Below are positions 3,834 to 23,828 of a stretch of DNA of 41,801 nt, one piece after another. The stretch is taken from the sequence record PZ179881.1. One strand, written 5' to 3'. How positions within the stretch are numbered: position 1 is the first letter of the stretch; each line of letters opens with the position of its first letter. The position numbers were made by a program, and so were the translations under genes. This DNA comes from a phage. Below the pieces are notes generated by a model that saw only the letters and a program-made list of their open reading frames with translations, searched no databases and was not told where the DNA came from.

Positions 3834-3999
3834 GGTTACTGACCCGGTTAAGCCTCCGCTGTTCCAGAAGGATACCGACCTGGTTGAGTACGCCTTGCAG
3901 CTCCTGGGTGATATTGAGCAGATGAACCAAGACCGCGCTACTGTGCGGAAAGCTGTGGATACCCACAACGGTGCCTCTGTGACTCACCCTGTGAAGTAA
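3712..3999 (+). CDS. o-spanin (Rz1-like outer-membrane lipoprotein)
   Basis: Internal ATG of track ORF 3508-3999 with GGAG 8 nt upstream; signal peptide ending in lipobox-like LTSC; short Pro-rich mature region; out of frame and overlapping the i-spanin gene. Confidence 0.6.
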   Translation: MMPLRNTRLPVLVSLLAMLTLTSCTREVVKYERVPLVLSSEVTDPVKPPLFQKDTDLVEYALQLLGDIEQMNQDRATVRKAVDTHNGASVTHPVK

Positions 4000-4043
4000 C
4001 CCTGTGCTGGGCCGTCGGTGAGTGTATACCTGCGGCCCAAATA

Positions 4044-4052
4044 TGGTATAAT
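4044..4052 (+). promoter_or_regulatory. Extended -10 element TGgTATAAT (possible host promoter)
   Basis: Perfect TATAAT with upstream TG; no convincing -35; located just after the lysis cassette at the start of the non-coding terminal region. Confidence 0.25.
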
Positions 4053-4149
4053 TATGCGAGACGGTAGCGACCCGGCGCGGAACCCGTACTTCCCCCATAG
4101 GGCACCCGGCGGAACCATCGGAGTGACCATCTGGCCATCTGGACGGCTA

Positions 4150-4190
4150 AACGGGGAGCCTGCCGGATAACCGGGGAGCGAACCGGGGAG
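4150..4190 (+). repeat. Three direct copies of AACsGGGGAG
   Basis: AACGGGGAG (4150-4158), AACCGGGGAG (4169-4178), AACCGGGGAG (4181-4190); flanked by further CCGGGT / GGGTTA-rich repeats to about 4460. Confidence 0.5.
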
Positions 4191-4503
4191 AACCTCGCTT
4201 TAACCTGTGGGTTAGCCGGGTTGCCCTGTGCTTTACTCTGTGCGGTATCCTGTGCGTTAACCGGGTTGTACTCACCACGTCCCGCAGGTTTATCAGAGTC
4301 GCCACGGGTTAGACTCAAGGGTTATCGGTTGGTGAGTTTAGCAGTTACATCACCGGGTAACGAGGGTATCGGGTTAACAGTGGCTATAGTAACAGGGTTA
4401 GCCGGGAGTGTCAACCGGGTTTATTCATTGGGTTACTCATTGGTTTAAATCCGGGTAGACAGGCGGCCTATCTGTATCTTCTGCCATTACCCAGAGAGTA
4501 AAT

Positions 4504-4527
4504 CTGAATTGGCACCCCTATAGTAAC
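4504..4527 (+). promoter_or_regulatory. Phage RNAP promoter (CTGAATTGGCACCCCTATAGTAAC) in terminal/leader region
   Basis: One of four near-identical + strand copies of yTGAwTTGGCACyCCTATAG; resembles the SP6/K11 class of single-subunit RNAP promoters (xxCACTATAG core); predicted +1 at the final G (4523). Confidence 0.65.
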
Positions 4528-4565
4528 AGAACGGTCGAATGCGGCTTGTGTATCTGTTACGGCGG

Positions 4566-4770
4566 TAACCCGGAGGGAAGGGAGGGAGGAGAGAGACACG
4601 GGAGAGAGTAACCCAGAGAGGAGACTACCCGGAGAGACTACCCAGAGCATAGCCCAGAGGTTAGCACCCAGAGAGTAACCCAGAGGAGAGCAACCCGGAT
4701 AAGCTAACCCGGTTAACAGACACGGAGAGCAAGCCAGAGAGTAACCCGGCATAGCATAACCCGGAGAGCT
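4566..4770 (+). repeat. Array of about 13 short purine-rich direct repeats (CCCrGAGAG-type units, period about 12-13 bp)
   Basis: Visible tandem units such as ACCCAGAGAG, CCCGGAGAG, CCCAGAGGAGAG, often followed by TAA or CTA; starts about 40 nt downstream of the phage promoter at 4504. Confidence 0.6.
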
Positions 4771-4805
4771 ACCGCCTATAGTAAACCCGGCTAACCCTGG
4801 TTAAC

Positions 4806-4817
4806 CTGCACTCGCAA
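4806..4817 (+). repeat. Recurring hairpin motif copy 1 (CTGCACTCGCAA)
   Basis: Core GCACTCGCA, potential TGC-ACTC-GCA stem-loop; intergenic, ~30 nt upstream of the sigma70-like promoter. Confidence 0.5.
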
Positions 4818-4848
4818 AGGGTATCTGTAAATAATTTCTAAAAGAGTG

Positions 4849-4878
4849 TTGACACGGGCTAATCAGTATTGCTATAGT
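4849..4878 (+). promoter_or_regulatory. Sigma70-type host promoter candidate (early)
   Basis: TTGACA (4849-4854), 18-bp spacer, TGcTATAGT extended -10 (4870-4878); AT-rich stretch upstream (4826-4846). Confidence 0.5.
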
Positions 4879-4988
4879 TCACATCGTCGAAGGGCAACAC
4901 GGAAACGGATAGCCCAGAGATACCCGGTCAAGCGGGTTAAGTAGACAGCCTGCTCAGTCATACGAACAACAGGCACTTGACAAGATGT

Positions 4989-5029
4989 GATGTAACGTAG
5001 TACCTTAGTAACCGATGTAACGCAGTACC
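4989..5029 (+). repeat. 16-bp direct repeat pair GATGTAACGyAGTACC
   Basis: Copies at 4989-5004 and 5014-5029 differ at one position; between a TTGACA box (4977-4982) and the first early ORF; candidate protein-binding site. Confidence 0.45.
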
Positions 5030-5088
5030 GCTCTTTAACAATCCGGGTAATCTATCAAGTGATGCCGTCTAACAATGAGGGTAACACG

Positions 5089-5400
5089 ATGGAATTAAAG
5101 AAACAGTTGACACGCTATAAACGCAGTGCTAACGTAGAAAAGCTCCACCAGACGCTAAGCGCTGAGGCGATGCAGAAGGATGGGCAAGCGGCACGACGCC
5201 GCAAGAAACAGCTAAGCGAGCGGCTTTACATTCCGCAAGTTATAAGCTCTAATGACTTCTCCGATAAGGGGAACATGCGCAAGACGGCAGCTAGGAGCAA
5301 TCAGGGCAACGTCCGCGCCATCGGCAATAAGACCGATGTTAAGATTAACAGCTATTGGTCAAGTAAACGCGGCGATAACATGCCGAAAGATAAAGGTTGA
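5089..5400 (+). CDS. Hypothetical early protein (very basic, low complexity)
   Basis: ATG at 5089 with GAGGG 7 nt upstream (track ORF 5059 begins at an upstream GTG); first ORF after the terminal promoter region; coding status less certain because composition looks atypical. Confidence 0.45.
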   Translation: MELKKQLTRYKRSANVEKLHQTLSAEAMQKDGQAARRRKKQLSERLYIPQVISSNDFSDKGNMRKTAARSNQGNVRAIGNKTDVKINSYWSSKRGDNMPKDKG

Positions 5401-14199: not shown

Positions 14200-16668
14200 A
14201 TGGCTATGAAATGCCTGATTCACGACTGTGAAACAGAAACTAACCCGTGGTATGGACAGGTGGCATCGCCGTACTGCCCGGATAACTACGTGGTTGAGGA
14301 CGCCTGGGAGACGGTAACCCTGGGCGGTGAGGTGGAGATTAGCCCGCGTACCGACCGCCGCTACAACTCGCTTGAGGAGTGGAAGGGCAACTGGTCTGTG
14401 GACTTCTCCGGGATTGATATCTACGTGGCCCACAATGCTGCGTATGAAATGAGCTGGTTACTGGAGCACGACTATGATAACTTCATGGCGTTTCTCAAAC
14501 GTGGTGGTCGTGTTTATTGTACCGCTTACGCTCACTATCTACTCAGCAACATGCAGGACACTTACCCCGCGCTTAACGACGTTGCACCAATCTACGGCGG
14601 TACGCCAAAGGTGGATGCAGTCAAGGCACTATGGGAAGCTGGCGTTAAAACGTCGGATATTGACCCGGCGCTACTTCGGGAGTATCTGTTCGGGCCTAAC
14701 GGCGATATCGCCAACACCACCAAAGTTTTCCTGGGAACGTGGTCGGAGCTTGTTAGACGTAACATGTTGAAGATGGCGCTGGTGCGCATGGATGGCCTGC
14801 TGTTCTCTGCCATCTGTATGCACCACGGCTTGAAGGTTGACATGGAGGTAGCGGAGCGTGACCGCAGCCGTAACGAGCGGTTGCTGGAAGGCCTGCACTC
14901 GCAGGTGATTCAGTATCTGCCAGCGGATATGCCCGCCGAAGCCCGTGCGCAGTTCACCGGGACACGCTTCCAGTTGTCGGCGTTCATCTTCGGTGGCGCT
15001 ATGAAGTACACGGCGCGAGTACCGCGTGAGGATGCCGACGGCAATCCCATCTACGTGAAGAAGGAAGGGCCGTACTTCAAGAGCATCAAAGGAGCGCTGC
15101 CAGAGAGCGCCTGCATGTTCGACGAGGAGGCAGGTGGCCTTTGGTATTCCCCGGAGCTGAAAGAGCACCAGGCGCGTTACACGGCAGGTAAGAACAAAGG
15201 CCTGCCGAAGTTCGATAAGTATGTGACCGACGAGGTTGATACGAAGAACGGCGACCTGCTGTATCACTTCCCCGGCCTGCTGTCTGAGGAGGTGCAGGAG
15301 AAGCTGAGCCTGGCGATTGAGGGTGAGTGGTCTGGTAGCCAGAAGCTGCAAGACGGCAGCCCGGTAATCAGCACCAGTGGTGACGTGTTGGATGTGCTGG
15401 CGGCGCACGACGTGCCAGTAGCTAAGTTGTTGAAAGATATCGGGAAGATTGATAAAGACCTCGGTGCATTCTACATCAAGCGCACGTTCAACAAAGATGG
15501 CAGCTTGAAGAAAGAAGGCGGCATGTTGCAGTACGTGCAGCCGGACGGCTTCATTCACCACACGCTGAACCACACGAGCACCGTGACGGCGCGACTCAGC
15601 TCGAACAAGCCGAACCTCCAGCAGTTACCACGAGCGGAGGAAGCGCGGGACGAGAACGAGTTCAAGTCCACGGTTAAGGAAATGTTCGTGAGTCGCTTCG
15701 GTGACGACGGCGGCATCCTCCAGGAGGACTACAGCGCACTGGAGACGGTTGGTTTGCAGGTGTTGACCCGCGACGTTAACCTCAAGGCTGCGCTGCTCAA
15801 AGGCCTGGACATGCACTCTATGCGCCTCGCGGCGATGGAGAACCAGACCTATGAGTACGTGGTGGCGCGTACCAAAGACGACACGCACCCTGAACACGCT
15901 GAGTGGGACGTGAAGCGTACAGGCGTTAAGCCAGTTGCATTCCAGTATCAGTATGGTGCGACGGCTTACGGCATGGCGATGAGCACTGGTAAATCCCAGG
16001 ACTTCTGCCAGGCGTTCATTGACGCGGAGAAGAAGGCGTTCCCCGGCGTTGAGGACTGGTACGACAACACGGTGTACCCGACGGTGGAAGCGACGGCAGC
16101 GCAGAACAAGCCTATCCGTGTGCAGCTCGACGACGGGCGTTACGTTATGTTCGGCTGGGGTACGTTCACTACCCACGACGGCACGACGTATCAGTTCCGC
16201 CAGCAGAGCAAGCAGCGTTGGAATCCGGTGACTAAGAAGCGTGAGGAAGTCAAGGAGTTCACGGTGCCGCAGATGCGTAACTACCCGATTCAGGGCGCAT
16301 CCGGTTTCTTCGTGCAGCTCGCTTGCGGTATGCTGATTCGTCACTTCATCGCCAACGACTTCTACGGTGGCAAGTGCCTGCCGATTAACACGGTTCACGA
16401 TGCGTGTTACTTCGACACTCACAAAGACGTAGTGTACCAGGCAGCGTATGAGGTGGAGGCCATCATGGAATCCATCCCGGAAATGCTGAATGCACTGTGG
16501 CCTGCGTATCAGTGTGAGGTGCCGTTCCCGGTGGCAGGTGGCTTCGGTAAGAACATGGCCGAGGAGCACCACGTTTACGACAAGGATAGCAAAGACCTGT
16601 TCAAACAGCAGAAAGCGAACTTCAAGAAAGAGTTCCTTGCTAAGAAGGGTATCGCGGTTCAATTCTGA
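14200..16668 (+). CDS. DNA polymerase (family A, with 3'-5' exonuclease domain)
   Basis: 822 aa; exo-like HDCETETNPWYG near N-terminus; pol I-type motifs (SSNKPNLQQLPR, NYPIQGASG, VHDACYFD). Confidence 0.9.
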   Translation: MAMKCLIHDCETETNPWYGQVASPYCPDNYVVEDAWETVTLGGEVEISPRTDRRYNSLEEWKGNWSVDFSGIDIYVAHNAAYEMSWLLEHDYDNFMAFLKRGGRVYCTAYAHYLLSNMQDTYPALNDVAPIYGGTPKVDAVKALWEAGVKTSDIDPALLREYLFGPNGDIANTTKVFLGTWSELVRRNMLKMALVRMDGLLFSAICMHHGLKVDMEVAERDRSRNERLLEGLHSQVIQYLPADMPAEARAQFTGTRFQLSAFIFGGAMKYTARVPREDADGNPIYVKKEGPYFKSIKGALPESACMFDEEAGGLWYSPELKEHQARYTAGKNKGLPKFDKYVTDEVDTKNGDLLYHFPGLLSEEVQEKLSLAIEGEWSGSQKLQDGSPVISTSGDVLDVLAAHDVPVAKLLKDIGKIDKDLGAFYIKRTFNKDGSLKKEGGMLQYVQPDGFIHHTLNHTSTVTARLSSNKPNLQQLPRAEEARDENEFKSTVKEMFVSRFGDDGGILQEDYSALETVGLQVLTRDVNLKAALLKGLDMHSMRLAAMENQTYEYVVARTKDDTHPEHAEWDVKRTGVKPVAFQYQYGATAYGMAMSTGKSQDFCQAFIDAEKKAFPGVEDWYDNTVYPTVEATAAQNKPIRVQLDDGRYVMFGWGTFTTHDGTTYQFRQQSKQRWNPVTKKREEVKEFTVPQMRNYPIQGASGFFVQLACGMLIRHFIANDFYGGKCLPINTVHDACYFDTHKDVVYQAAYEVEAIMESIPEMLNALWPAYQCEVPFPVAGGFGKNMAEEHHVYDKDSKDLFKQQKANFKKEFLAKKGIAVQF
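14892..14905 (+). repeat. Recurring hairpin motif copy 6 (CCTGCACTCGCAGG)
   Basis: Perfect 5-bp stem CCTGC/GCAGG with ACTC loop, inside the DNA polymerase gene. Confidence 0.45.
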
Positions 16669-16684
16669 ATTGACACCCCTATAC
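16665..16684 (+). promoter_or_regulatory. Degenerate promoter-like element (CTGAATTGACACCCCTATAC)
   Basis: Two mismatches to consensus, including the predicted +1 (G to C); overlaps the DNAP stop; followed by CCCAGAGTAACC, which matches the terminal-region repeat unit. Confidence 0.25.
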
Positions 16685-16735
16685 CCAGAGTAACCAAATC
16701 AGTACACAAAGTAACCTAACTGGAGAGTAACCTAT

Positions 16736-17554
16736 ATGACTACTATGCAAGAACGTTTAGCAGCCCGCGCAGAAGCAGCCAAAGCCCGCCAGGGTTCCAT
16801 GAATGATGTTGAGAAGGGTGGCGACGGCAGCGGTAAGAAGTTCAAGACCGCGCCGGAAGGCAAGTTCAAAGCGCGTCTGGTTGGCTATGTCGAAATCGGT
16901 AGCCACGAGAACAAGTTCGACCCGTCGAAAGACCCGGCACCGATGTTCGTTCTGCGCTTCGCCCTGTTCGGTAAGGACTGCCAGGAAGAAGACGGTACGC
17001 CGATTACCATCGACAGCCGTGAAATCAAGATGAGCAAGTTTGAACGTGCGAATGCCGTCAAGCTGTTCCGTCAGATGTGTCCGAAGAAGGATGCCGATCA
17101 CTTCATGGAGCTGCTCGACCGTGTGTTCTGGGTTGAAATCTGGCACAACAAGCAGCAGAAGGGCGATAAAGAAGTCGTGTACGCTAACCTGAAACAGGAG
17201 TCAATCGTACCGGGTGTGCGTGAAGTGCTGGACGACGACGACAACATCATCGGCTACAAGGCGATTGCATGTGACCCGGCACCGGAGAGCATGTTCAACA
17301 TCTTCGAATGGGATAACCCGTCCGTCGAAGACTTCAAGACCTTGAAGCCGTGGGACAAGGACAAGATTCGCAAGGCTGTGAACTTCCCTGGCTCCCACGT
17401 TGAGCAGCTCGTCGGTAAGGGCGAAGATAAGCCTGCCAACACCAACAACGGTGCGGCGACCAACGAGCCGGACGGCGAAGACGACGAGCCGAAACAGACT
17501 GTGGATACTCCGAAGGATATCCCGGTTGAAGGCGCTGACCTGCCGATGCTGTAA
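16736..17554 (+). CDS. Hypothetical protein with strongly acidic C-terminal tail (possible DNA-binding accessory protein)
   Basis: 272 aa; basic N-terminal region, C-terminal ~40 aa rich in D/E (NEPDGEDDEPKQTVDTPKDIPVEGADLPML); GGAGAG upstream. Confidence 0.65.
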   Translation: MTTMQERLAARAEAAKARQGSMNDVEKGGDGSGKKFKTAPEGKFKARLVGYVEIGSHENKFDPSKDPAPMFVLRFALFGKDCQEEDGTPITIDSREIKMSKFERANAVKLFRQMCPKKDADHFMELLDRVFWVEIWHNKQQKGDKEVVYANLKQESIVPGVREVLDDDDNIIGYKAIACDPAPESMFNIFEWDNPSVEDFKTLKPWDKDKIRKAVNFPGSHVEQLVGKGEDKPANTNNGAATNEPDGEDDEPKQTVDTPKDIPVEGADLPML

Positions 17555-21296: not shown

Positions 21297-21377
21297 CTGG
21301 TGCTTTAGACAATGGGTGTCCACGGGTAACGTGGACTACCTGCAATTATATCATGAGTGGAAGGGCAGAGGATACTG

Positions 21378-23828
21378 ATGGCAACACTGGAACAACAGTT
21401 GGAGTGGGAGCGTAAGCACCGTGAGCTAGGCCAGGCTAAGATGGCTGCGCAGCTACAGGCTGCAAAGGAAGACGGACGCATAACCGATACTCCCCTGGGT
21501 TCCGTTGTGCTTCGCCGTTACCTGCTCTGGCTGTCTCGTAAGATAGCGAAGGACGTAACCACTGACCTGGACGAGCCGGGGCGCAGCAAGGCGTATAGCC
21601 CTCTGCTGTTCTCCCTGGACATGGACGCGGTGGCACTGCTGGCAATCTCTGAGGCGTTGAAGCTGTGTGTGGCTGGCCCGGTGCAGGCGACTACCCTGGG
21701 CTTCGCCATCGGCAAGGTGCTGTATGGTGAGCTTGCTCTCGCAGCATTCCGCGACATGAACGCGAATCTGTATGAGGTGCTGACCGAAGACCTCCAGCGC
21801 AAGATGAGTAAAGACCTGCGCCACCGCATGACTATCTTCCGTATGCAGGCCCAGAAGAACGGCATTGAGCTGCCGGAGTGGACGCCGACGCAGAAGCTCC
21901 AGGTGGGTATGTACGTCATGGGCCTCATGAGTACGCCGAACGAAGACGGTGAGGTACTGCTGGAGAACACGCTCAAGAGCTACGGCAAGAAGACCAAGTA
22001 CATGGTTGACCTCGCGCCGGAAATCCACAAGCTCATGCAGGGTATTGAGGGCAGCATCATCGGTCGTTCCGGGTTCGCGGCACCGTGTCTGATTCCTCCG
22101 CAGGACTGGACGGGTGAAGAAGGTGTCGGCGGGTTCCACGGCGACCTCAAGATTCGCGCTGTACGTTTCTTCAAAGGTTCTACCTATCAATGGGAGGTTA
22201 TGAATAGCGAGGGCCATAATCCAGAGGTCACCCTGGCTATGCTCAACGCTCACCAGAAGGTAGCTTGGAAGGTAAATCCTTTCATTCTCGACTTATTGAA
22301 AGGTATGCGCTATCACGGATACGGTATCCGTAAGAAGGTCGAGTTCAGCAGCGCACACGAGAAGATTAAACCTGAGCGCCTGGAGTGGCTCGACACGGTT
22401 AAGGAAGGAGACTTCACAGATGTGCAGCAGTACAACTTCGAGACGTGGAAGCGGAAGATGCGCGACTGGCACACTGAGGCCAAACGCATTGGTCGTGTTG
22501 AACTGCGGTGCAACATGGCGATTAGTGCGGCTCAGGAAGTCAGCACGTTAGACCGATTTTACTATGTATATCAAGTAGATAACCGTGGTCGCATGTATCC
22601 GGTATCCGGGCTGCTTAACCCGCAGGGCAGTGACGTGCAGAAGGCGTTGCTCCACGCAGCGGACGGCGAGCCGATTGATACGCCGGAGGCACTCTGGTGG
22701 TTCAAGATGGGTATCGCCAGCAAGTTCGGCATAGATAAACTGGCCCCGGAAGACTGCGTTAAATGGGTGGACGACAACCATGCAAACATCATCCGGGCCG
22801 CTGACGACCCACTTGACCGAGACGCTTTTAACTGGTGGACTGGCGCTGATAAACCCTTGCAATTCATCGCCTTGTGTGATGAGTATCGCAGATATCACGA
22901 GTCACCAACCACCTTCGTCTCCCGCATCGCCGTCGCAATGGACGGAACCTGTAACGGCCTCCAGAACTATTCCGCCATGCTGCGAGATAGCGTGGGTGGA
23001 CGAGCTACAAACCTCATTAGCGCAGATAATGGCATACCTAACGATATCTATGGAGACGTCGCCAAAGCGTCATTTAAGCGACTTGGCAGAATGGAGGCGT
23101 CAAATCTGCGAACCGATTGGGTCAACTACGGCTTCGACCGTAGCCTTACTAAGAAGTCTGTAATGACCCAGGTGTACGGCTCCACCTTCGGTACTTGCCG
23201 AAAGTCAATCATTGAATACTGCTACGATAAACAAATCTTCGAAGGCTCGGAGTATGACCACGCTGATTATGCAGCGCGTCTGGTCTGGGACGGCATCGGG
23301 GATGTGGTTGTCAAGGCGAAGGAAGCGATGGACTGGCTGCGCAAGAGCGCCGGGGCGGTGATGAAGGAGGGTGCTGAGTACATTACCTGGCTGGCACCGA
23401 CCGGGTTCCGAGTCGTGCAGGTTTACAACAAGCACAAGACCATGCAGGTTCGTGCGCATATCGGCAAGAACGTGCGGCTGCGCGTACCTGACCCGGAGAA
23501 CATCGACGGGCCGGACAAGATGCGCCACCGTAACGCACTGCCGCCGAACTTCATTCACAGCATCGACAGTAGCCACATGGCGTTCGTATCGGTGCGCCTG
23601 GCGGCAGAGCTAGACGGGATGTTCATGCACTTCATCCACGACGACTTCGGGGTGCTGCCGAAACATGCGGCGCTGCTCTCGCGGGTAATTCGTGAGGAGT
23701 TCGTGAAGATGCACGAGAACTACAGCCTGGAGGACTTCAAGGCCGGGTATGAGTTCCTTGATGAGCCACCTGCAAAGGGTGACTTAGATATTAACTGTGT
23801 ATTAACCAGTGTTAACTTCTTTAGGTAA
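21378..23828 (+). CDS. Single-subunit DNA-dependent RNA polymerase (T7-like)
   Basis: 816 aa from ATG 21378 (AGAGGA upstream; track ORF starts at GTG 21357); conserved blocks MDGTCNGLQNYSAMLRDSVGGRATNL, PPNFIHSIDSSHM and FMHFIHDDFG align with T7 RNAP motifs. Confidence 0.9.
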   Translation: MATLEQQLEWERKHRELGQAKMAAQLQAAKEDGRITDTPLGSVVLRRYLLWLSRKIAKDVTTDLDEPGRSKAYSPLLFSLDMDAVALLAISEALKLCVAGPVQATTLGFAIGKVLYGELALAAFRDMNANLYEVLTEDLQRKMSKDLRHRMTIFRMQAQKNGIELPEWTPTQKLQVGMYVMGLMSTPNEDGEVLLENTLKSYGKKTKYMVDLAPEIHKLMQGIEGSIIGRSGFAAPCLIPPQDWTGEEGVGGFHGDLKIRAVRFFKGSTYQWEVMNSEGHNPEVTLAMLNAHQKVAWKVNPFILDLLKGMRYHGYGIRKKVEFSSAHEKIKPERLEWLDTVKEGDFTDVQQYNFETWKRKMRDWHTEAKRIGRVELRCNMAISAAQEVSTLDRFYYVYQVDNRGRMYPVSGLLNPQGSDVQKALLHAADGEPIDTPEALWWFKMGIASKFGIDKLAPEDCVKWVDDNHANIIRAADDPLDRDAFNWWTGADKPLQFIALCDEYRRYHESPTTFVSRIAVAMDGTCNGLQNYSAMLRDSVGGRATNLISADNGIPNDIYGDVAKASFKRLGRMEASNLRTDWVNYGFDRSLTKKSVMTQVYGSTFGTCRKSIIEYCYDKQIFEGSEYDHADYAARLVWDGIGDVVVKAKEAMDWLRKSAGAVMKEGAEYITWLAPTGFRVVQVYNKHKTMQVRAHIGKNVRLRVPDPENIDGPDKMRHRNALPPNFIHSIDSSHMAFVSVRLAAELDGMFMHFIHDDFGVLPKHAALLSRVIREEFVKMHENYSLEDFKAGYEFLDEPPAKGDLDINCVLTSVNFFR

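Follow-up and report, generated by a model that had tools for sequence, protein, structure and literature searches.

Directly downstream of a phage promoter in the window, by which we mean the whole 41,801-nucleotide stretch of phage DNA analysed here (PZ179881.1), lies an array of short purine-rich repeats. The question raised by this locus is whether the array acts as RNA, through the many SD-like GGAG motifs that a transcript of it would carry, or as DNA. An earlier note made from the sequence had named both options: a DNA-level signal for concatemer processing or packaging, and a structured or ribosome-titrating RNA. The position of the array, the anatomy of its surroundings, its period of about 13 bp and the occurrence of an array in every relative all support the first of these. 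The array most likely functions as DNA at the genome end or concatemer junction, and we consider it somewhat probable that it is the Cronosvirus positional counterpart of the SRL array of T7 and T3, with the role of a signal at that site.

Ends of the genome in a permuted assembly

The window is a complete T7-type genome (Autographiviridae) that is circularly permuted and in which the terminal repeat has collapsed to one copy. Its position 1 is the ATG of the large terminase, which carries the T7 terminase RNaseH-like domain, the small terminase makes up its final 111 codons, and a single-subunit RNA polymerase gene is found at 21357–23828. Between 3800 and 5100 the aligned parts are 90–98% identical to the Cronobacter phages EspYZU05, GAP227 and GY3 and to Kosakonia virus Kc318, all members of the genus Cronosvirus (Melnykvirinae); the identity to Cronosvirus phages is 92–98%. 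The records of GAP227, EspYZU05 and Kc318 end at the base corresponding to window position 4611 and start at 4612. They were opened in the middle of the array, and these records are also permuted assemblies. A 24-nt pattern run against IMG/VR for further Cronosvirus junctions returned GAP227 itself as the sole match. It was because the window is a permuted assembly that the adjacency of the array to the physical genome end had been missed in the earlier note.

By homology with the annotated ends of relatives, the terminal repeat is the 404-bp segment listed in Table 1, with both ends predicted. One anchor is Yersinia phage phi80-18 (Pokrovskaiavirus), a member of the same subfamily, for which experimentally determined ends and a direct terminal repeat (DTR) of 325 bp have been published (PMC7316996). 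The other annotated repeats measure 385 bp (phiR8-01), 443 bp (Arno160) and 584 bp (GP-4). All four DTRs start with GCGACC directly after GCGAGACGGTA, the conserved ATGCGAGACGGTA immediately precedes the start in each of these relatives, and all four terminate in GGCGGGCTA followed by TCT(G/A)T(A/T)TC. In addition, the GY3 record was opened exactly at the equivalent of window position 4470, a break point that lends weak support to the repeat boundary. As a separate observation, the 121-bp overlap between the ends of the GY3 record resembles an assembler overlap rather than a full terminal repeat.

Internally, the repeat contains TTCCCCCATAGGG at offset 24 from its left end, the same offset as in T7. 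Its left part holds three copies of the direct-orientation unit AACCGGGGAG, and its right part holds inverted GGGTTA units (six copies at 4209–4430) with a polarity of 6:0. To the left, the last gene ends at 3999, which leaves 67 bp before the repeat start, and most of this interval is taken up by a conserved element (4008–4066) with the arms of a hairpin, a candidate for the left-end cleavage or recognition site. A blastn search with 4000–4130 returned 43 phage records from 10 host genera, in which the conserved part left of the repeat measures 60–85 bp. The window and the GenBank records of GAP227, EspYZU05 and Kc318 need correction of their ends, for which 4067 and 4470 are the predicted positions; with the collapsed repeat counted, the real genome would be about 404 bp longer than the record.

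Table 1. Features of the predicted genome end and of the array region, with one related element elsewhere in the window
Feature	Position	Strand	Sequence or remark
Conserved element left of the repeat start	4008–4066	+	Hairpin arms 4008–4019 and 4028–4039, then AAATATGGTATAATTATGCGAGACGGTA
Predicted direct terminal repeat, 404 bp	4067–4470	+	By homology with the annotated DTRs of four relatives
Second CTATAGTAA-type promoter-core fragment	4384–4395		Inside the terminal repeat
ATCTGTATC at the right edge of the repeat	4470–4478	+	In all relatives; at the position of the ATCTGTT junction signal of T7, T3 and SP6
Stray array unit	4488–4502	+	TACCCAGAGAGTAAA; upstream of P1
Phage RNA-polymerase promoter P1	4504–4530	+	TCTGAATTGGCACCCCTATAGTAACAGA; reads rightward into the array
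Hairpin of 38 nt at the 5' end of the P1 transcript	4523–4560	+	GTAACAGA (4523–4530) pairs with TCTGTTAC (4553–4560)
Homopurine G-rich tract, 25 nt	4572–4596	+	GGAGGGAAGGGAGGGAGGAGAGAGA, with the mirror repeat GGAGGGAAGGGAGG inside
Promoter-core fragment CTATAGTAA	4776–4784	+	Within the last array units
Third ATCTGTA, then AT-rich AATAATTTCTAAAAGAG	4823–4845	+	Directly upstream of the first host-type promoter
Sigma-70-type promoter	4849–4878	+	TTGACA-18-TATAGT with TG; 11/12 matches; homologous to T7 A1
Second TTGACA	4977–4982	+	Aligns with T7 A2
Region corresponding to the R0.3 RNase III site of T7/T3	5028–5046	+	CCGCTCTTTAACAATCCGG; identity with T7 811–830
Degenerate promoter fused to one array-like unit	16663–16695	+	TCTGAATTGACACCCCTATA-CCCAGAGTAACC

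Make-up and surroundings of the array

The array is real and non-random. Within 4566–4770, the 205 bp to which it had first been assigned, CCCRGAG occurs eight times on the top strand versus 0.06 expected from the remaining genome (Poisson P ~4e-15); this segment is the main portion only, and the full array extends to about 4806. Across the whole window the same core is found 28 times versus 11.9 expected. The array is composed of approximately 13–14 copies of AACCCRGAGAGTARCC in a single orientation with a spacing of 12–16 bp, and going rightward the core CCCRGAG decays toward CCCGGNT. Between 4490 and 4801, 14 units can be listed, with the consensus AACCCAGAGAGTARCC. The polarity is equally clear from TAACCC, which in 4471–4830 is present seven times on the top strand and zero times on the bottom strand. 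One unit lies apart from the others, upstream of P1 (4488–4502); it is present in EspYZU05 and Kc318 and replaced in GAP227 and GY3.

The earlier description of the repeat as a 9-mer did not hold. The lags that came out as significant in autocorrelation were 12, 13 and 15, those at 26 and 39–41 being harmonics, and TRF reported periods of 12, 13 and 26; neither method gave a 9-bp period. The purine-richness described at the same time was confirmed, the purine fraction of 0.69 being the highest of any 200-bp stretch in the window (mean 0.53, sd 0.04). The count of more than ten GGAGAG/GGAGG motifs was a slight overcount: GGAG occurs 10 times (GGAGAG six times and GGAGG three times), which is still about four times the 2.4 predicted by composition. 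Four of these 10 (at 4572, 4581, 4585 and 4588) come from the homopurine tract at the left end of the array.

The array is non-coding, with no top-strand ORF of at least 30 aa and no CDS annotated at this place in the records of relatives. Coding on the minus strand was considered for a 94-aa ORF (4468–4752) and rejected, as Pfam gave no match for this ORF and an 11-bp indel interrupts its frame in relatives; a stretch free of stops is to be expected on a pyrimidine-rich strand. The statement that no ORF lies downstream is correct locally, but transcripts from P1 would pass two host-type promoters and enter the first early gene, the ATG of which is at 5089.

Read rightward, the order of elements is terminal repeat, ATCTGTA, P1, hairpin with ATCTGTT, array, ATCTGTA, A1/A2-like promoters, R0.3-like site and gene 1. 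The phage promoter that had been proposed at 4504 is well founded. It belongs to the GAATTGGCACCCCTATAGTAAC family, which has four copies with at most three mismatches in the window (4506, 23913, 27364 and 38666) and zero in shuffled sequences; it matches the genome's own gene-oriented promoter consensus of about 23 bp; it is invariant among five close relatives; and in phi80-18 a phage promoter is annotated at the equivalent place. If, by analogy with T7, the +1 of P1 is G4523, the array would start at about +44. Six phages retain the stem of the hairpin at the start of this predicted transcript, and in EspYZU13 and Dev-CD an A-U pair of the stem is exchanged for U-A. The 3' arm of the hairpin contains an exact T7 class II core, T-ATCTGTT, at 4551–4558; genome-wide, ATCTGTT has seven copies versus 3.8 expected, a count that is not significant by itself.

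To the right of the array, the element composed of the third ATCTGTA and its AT-rich continuation (4823–4845) is conserved in EspYZU13, Kaonashi, phiAS7, phiR8-01 and Atoyac10. The segment 4842–4990 aligns with T7 471–620, that is from A1 to A2, and approximately 40 nt of it are nearly identical. The R0.3-like site that follows is present in all relatives and annotated in T3. Elsewhere in the window, the hybrid of a degenerate promoter and one array-like unit is 97–99.6% conserved in close relatives. Recurrence of the array unit after this promoter, which the earlier note placed at 16665, proved to be partly right: CCCAGAGTAACC is located only at 16684, and the exact 12-mer is absent from the array, where the unit CCCAGAGAGTAACC is 2 nt longer.

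Counterparts in relatives and in T7, T3 and SP6

An array was observed directly after the P1-type promoter in 11 of the 11 related phages examined, a set composed of EspYZU13, Dev-CD-23823, Arno160, phi80-18, phiR8-01, Kaonashi, Atoyac10, phiAS7, Vibrio phage VpaP_G1 and the close Cronosvirus set. In all 11 arrays the best lag is 11–15 bp, with an observed value that 0 of 300 shuffles attained in each case. The earlier note had suggested that the unit be searched for at the termini of related phages, and the outcome was twofold: an array is at the same place in all relatives, but the sequence of the unit differs by lineage. The lineage-specific units include CCCRGAG, CATAGAG, ATAGAG, CTAAGGG, CACTAGGG, GGTGCTACTTGGTTG and ATAGATAGAAC. 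Even within Cronosvirus the unit is not constant, since that of Dev-CD-23823 is CATAGAGTAAGC, and there too the array persists. Position and period are thus conserved and the GGAG motif is not, its content ranging from 0 to 10; the GGAG counts of equivalent arrays are 10, 10, 6, 2, 3, 0, 5, 4 and 1, and that of T7 is 0.

A close comparison is with phi80-18 and other Melnykvirinae, in which the terminal repeat is likewise followed by TCT(A/G)T, P1, GTATCTGTTA, a purine-rich array, host promoters, CCGCTCTTTAACAAT and g01. The units differ from those of the window, being CTAAGGG and GATAGAG, with GGAG occurring just twice. The published description of phi80-18 covers the repeat and the promoters, and in its available passages the array goes unmentioned (PMC7316996).

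Beyond the subfamily, the order from the terminal repeat to the early promoters is colinear with that of T7, T3 and SP6. In T7 the repeat spans 1–160, ATCTGTT starts at 161 (the terminal repeat being followed by ATCTGTTAC), and CCTAAAG units follow with a lag of 13 (z = 23). The corresponding values for T3 are a repeat at 1–231, ATCTGTT at 232 and CTTAAAG/CCTAAAG units with a lag of 13. In SP6 the repeat ends in GGGCGTGGGCT, ATCTGTT starts at 174, and about 10 CCTTAGT units have a lag of 12. For phiKMV, no ATCTGT was found at the repeat edge, and the lag of its short repeats is about 15.

The array agrees with the SRL of T7 and T3 in position, copy number, orientation, period, non-coding character and the presence of an ATCTGT edge. 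Like the SRL, it is a non-coding series of approximately 12–14 imperfect 7-bp cores in one orientation with a 13-bp period, and it is situated in unique DNA to the right of the left terminal repeat and ATCTGT and to the left of the A1/A2 promoters. The terminal repeat also resembles that of T7 in having direct units on the left and inverse-like units on the right, although it is longer (404 bp versus 160 bp in T7 and 231 bp in T3). Several differences need to be stated. The core is the purine-rich CCCRGAG versus CCTAAAG, and the array is therefore grouped with the SRL on its position and architecture and not on the sequence of its unit. P1 and the hairpin are located between the repeat edge and the array, unlike T7, where phiOL lies downstream of the SRL and is followed by A1–A3; and the array begins 96 bp from the repeat edge versus about 13 bp in T7. 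No SRR-type array was found in the 67 bp outside the other side of the terminal repeat, and the unit-like motifs sit inside the repeat. The left end of SP6 (Molineuxvirinae) is similar as well, having ATCTGTT, a 12-bp-period array, and then a TTGACA promoter and CTCTTTAACAAT; unlike the window, its unit is pyrimidine-rich on the top strand, being the inverse of CTAAGG, and inspection by eye revealed no phage promoter in the interval from the repeat to the array.

The class II signal has been defined as ATCTGTT after A, C or T on the non-template strand (10.64898/2026.02.12.705533; bioRxiv 10.1101/2021.01.11.426313). The T-ATCTGTT at 4551–4558 is an exact copy of the class II signal of the T7 CJ, and ATCTGTA is present both at 4823 and at the repeat edge (4470), the place where T7 has its CJ signal; unlike the T7 CJ, the ATCTGTT copy at 4552 doubles as the 3' arm of a conserved hairpin. 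Recognition of the signal is not universal, as the T7 and Syn5 polymerases respond to it and that of VSW-3 ignores it (PMC9624206). The sequence at 4551–4558 conforms to the motif rule, and pausing or termination 6–8 nt downstream of it by the polymerase of the window phage is putative.

Role of the array and alternative explanations

We propose that the array works at the level of DNA and that it is a track of many sites, all of one polarity, that would be read or bound by the genome-end machinery (terminase or maturation complex) during processing of the concatemer junction. Phage RNA polymerase possibly participates, after being loaded at P1 and then held where it meets the ATCTGT signal. 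Packaging of the T7 type runs from right to left, and because of this direction the array would be the last DNA that the motor crosses before the terminal repeat. A role as a brake or in positioning the final cut may be envisaged, with which the polarity of the array is consistent; the strict orientation of the units, and its reversal in the right half of the terminal repeat, fit a signal that is read directionally. An analogy in mechanism only is offered by lambda cosQ and KOPS, short polar motifs met by a translocating motor before a stop or cut site. There is no homology to either, lambda has a single site versus the periodic array, and for the window such a role is purely inferred. To our knowledge, no function has been demonstrated for the SRL even in T7, the matter was never settled, and the SRL/SRR arrays have gone unexplained since 1983; our literature search on SRL/SRR function found no paper testing it among those accessible.

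Four other explanations were weighed, in descending order of confidence a length-only spacer, an R-loop or origin element, promoter-core decoys and an RNA sponge. The first of these holds that the array has no sequence-specific role and serves as filler, by which a workable distance is maintained from the leading genome end to the early promoters, its repeats being generated by slippage and unequal recombination. Variation among relatives points this way. In five close relatives no other piece of the region varies as much: 24% of the array columns are variable or gapped versus 0% in P1 and 6–7% in the flanks, and whole units have been gained or lost (27-bp and 11-bp indels). Conservation of the 7-mer cores does not exceed that of the spacers in these five genomes (0.10 versus 0.096 substituted columns; Fisher P = 1), and as mentioned above the unit varies between genera and within Cronosvirus. 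Equal conservation of cores and spacers together with high variability fits a weak sequence constraint on the unit. Moreover, about 783 bp separate the predicted left end from the first host-type promoter, which is comparable to the leading stretch of T7 that bears A1–A3. However, slippage alone leaves unexplained why a period of 11–15 bp is seen in 14 arrays with unrelated units from four subfamilies, why the units have a single orientation with the inverse confined to the terminal repeat, and why an array is retained at the same spot in every genome examined. We regard this explanation as unlikely, though as the most probable of the four.

A replication element is less probable still. Here, transcription from P1 into the G-rich non-template tract and the array would produce a stable RNA-DNA hybrid that primes or opens an origin at the left end; T7 phiOL and phiOR are known to function as (secondary) origins. 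In every relative P1 immediately precedes the array, eight of nine related arrays have a purine-rich top strand (0.55–0.70), and the homopurine tract is kept in six aligned Cronosvirus genomes, with a similar G-rich purine tract at its position in Dev-CD-23823 and similar tracts beside ATCTGT in phi80-18 and phiAS7. Nevertheless, the DNA that follows the promoter-origins of T7 is AT-rich, not G-rich; the tract is missing from Arno160, phiR8-01, Kaonashi, Atoyac10 and VpaP_G1; and the top strand is pyrimidine-rich in the SP6 array, with a purine fraction of 0.49 in the T7 SRL. An R-loop would account for the first 30 nt and not for the periodic array.

The units could instead be degenerate promoter cores (compare ACCCAGAGAGTAAC with ACCCCTATAGTAAC) that weakly hold or guide phage RNA polymerase near the junction. 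The unit profile aligned best to the core in four of four promoters (P ~0.02 versus shuffled promoters), core fragments are found inside the array (4776) as well as inside the terminal repeat (4384), and the element at 16663–16695 joins a promoter to a unit. This similarity is statistically weak, the P value being derived from a single comparison; the units are without the upstream recognition half GAATTGGCA, and nothing comparable is recognisable by eye in Kaonashi, phi80-18 or VpaP_G1. We find this explanation very doubtful.

The RNA option with which the question began fares worst. Given that the array starts about 44 nt beyond a bona fide phage promoter and that its GGAG motifs exceed the number expected from composition, an unstructured leader might titrate ribosomes or a CsrA-like protein through GGAG/GGA, and the RNA is indeed predicted to be unstructured, which would leave the motifs accessible; but GGA itself is not enriched (12 versus 8.9 +/- 2.3 expected), GGAG varies from 0 to 10 in the arrays of relatives and is absent from T7, and the SP6 and T7 arrays are without such motifs, and on the grounds that GGA is unenriched beyond composition and GGAG is not conserved we reject a CsrA or ribosome sponge and give the RNA reading as a whole hardly any credence. 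A structured RNA or a member of a known RNA family was rejected as well. Searches of both strands against Rfam returned nothing at E<=1, and folding was not below that of shuffled sequences: z is +0.49 versus dinucleotide shuffles for the transcript 4522–4840 (71 of 100 shuffles at least as good) and +3.1 versus mononucleotide shuffles, and it is zero or positive in 9 of 10 arrays. The one structured part of the P1 transcript is the 38-nt hairpin that precedes the array. The GGAG richness is probably a by-product of the unit sequence of Cronosvirus, and with this a tempting misreading is removed: the SD-like cluster would be a side effect of one genus's repeat unit, not a translational or RNA-sponge element.

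The reading as a DNA-level counterpart of the SRL could be extended to the whole family. A polar array with an 11–15-bp period beside the terminal repeat may be one conserved module across Autographiviridae (Studiervirinae, Molineuxvirinae, Melnykvirinae and Youngvirus), with a unit that co-evolves with a phage protein and that is read directionally by terminase, or by polymerase held at ATCTGT, to stop and to place the final cut when packaging ends. In that case P1, the hairpin and ATCTGTT of Cronosvirus would together serve as a compact cassette for loading the polymerase and parking it before the array. This extension is speculative and we think it rather unlikely; if true, it would provide a mechanism for the SRL/SRR arrays and natural variants of the unit for tests of specificity.

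This type of array is already known as a genome-end feature, to which Cronosvirus adds another member. Repeat, ATCTGT, an array with a period of approximately 13 bp and early promoters make up a family-wide layout in T7-like phages in which the unit turns over fast, and this fast turnover supplies natural variants with which to ask what the role of the array is.

The left end and interior of the terminal repeat

The hairpin and adjoining AAATATGGTATAATTATGCGAGACGGTA that lie directly left of the predicted start of the terminal repeat constitute the non-coding piece with the widest conservation. With blastn, matches were returned in 43 phage records from 10 host genera; the version in phi80-18 has a different stem sequence. 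The element is a likely candidate for the cleavage or recognition site of the left end. Within the repeat, the box TTCCCCCATAGGG is located at the same offset from the predicted left end as in T7, with T-CCCCC-N-TA being invariant across six phages of two subfamilies, and boxes resembling it occur near the genome ends of SP6, T3 and phiKMV. A predicted leftward sigma-70-type promoter is also situated in the terminal repeat and resembles the leftward A0 of T7 and T3.

Features of the terminal-repeat and array region and of a second site (window coordinates)
Feature	Position	Detail
Hairpin and AAATATGGTATAATTATGCGAGACGGTA	4008-4066	Arms 4008-4019 / 4028-4039
TTCCCCCATAGGG box	4090-4102	T7 24-36; offset 24 from predicted left end
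Predicted leftward sigma-70-type promoter	4414-4386	Minus strand; TTGACA-17-TACTAT with TG, 10/12 matches
ATCTGT(A/T), copy one	4470-4476	Non-coding; edge of terminal repeat
P1 transcript hairpin	4523-4560	Conserved; 5' end of transcript; 3' arm ATCTGTTAC
ATCTGT(A/T), copy two	4552-4558	Non-coding; ahead of array
Homopurine tract	4572-4596	25 nt; contains perfect 14-nt mirror repeat GGAGGGAAGGGAGG
ATCTGT(A/T), copy three	4823-4829	Non-coding; past array, just upstream of first host-type promoter
Degenerate phage promoter joined to array-like unit	16663-16740	CACCCCTATA-CCCAGAGTAACC; span includes the two AGTAACC copies and the ATG

Repeat polarity and the signals around the array

The polarity of the short repeats switches between the two blocks: GGGTTA (n = 6) is confined to the terminal repeat, in its right half (4209-4430), while its complement TAACCC (n = 7) is confined to the array (4566-4792). 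Many imperfect inverted repeats of 14-25 nt join these blocks, and the terminal repeat of T7 displays a similar order, with direct units followed by inverse ones. Since copies of ATCTGT(A/T) are found on both sides, the array is bracketed by this motif, and positions one and three are conserved subfamily-wide. The hairpin in the transcript from P1 (the phage promoter reading into the array) differs in EspYZU13 and Dev-CD-23823, where its partner arm is shifted and the two bases of the central pair have changed places (GTTACAG/CTGTAAC); therefore, ATCTGTTAC may form a stem, provide a class II pause/termination signal, or do both.

Conservation and turnover of the array

The homopurine tract is kept in all six aligned Cronosvirus genomes; a similar G-rich purine tract occupies its place in Dev-CD-23823, and one also follows ATCTGT(T/A) in phi80-18 and phiAS7. 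Formation of a triplex, G-quadruplex or R-loop by this tract is possible. At the second site, where conservation among close relatives is 97-99.6%, two further AGTAACC copies follow the hybrid, ahead of an ATG at 16736. Alignment of the array-unit profile to the core of the promoter gave P ~0.02.

Three "complete genome" GenBank records of close relatives, KC107834, MW882933 and MW250276 (loci L001-L004 and L017-L018), were opened inside the array at window 4611/4612 and contain the predicted terminal repeat as one copy; their stated ends probably differ from the physical ends. Dev-CD-23823 (loci L022/L023), a member of the same genus, possesses a CATAGAGTAAGC unit in place of CCCAGAGAGTAAC, yet retains P1, the hairpin, a G-rich tract and the spacing of ~11-13 bp, which shows that the array unit turns over fast inside one genus.
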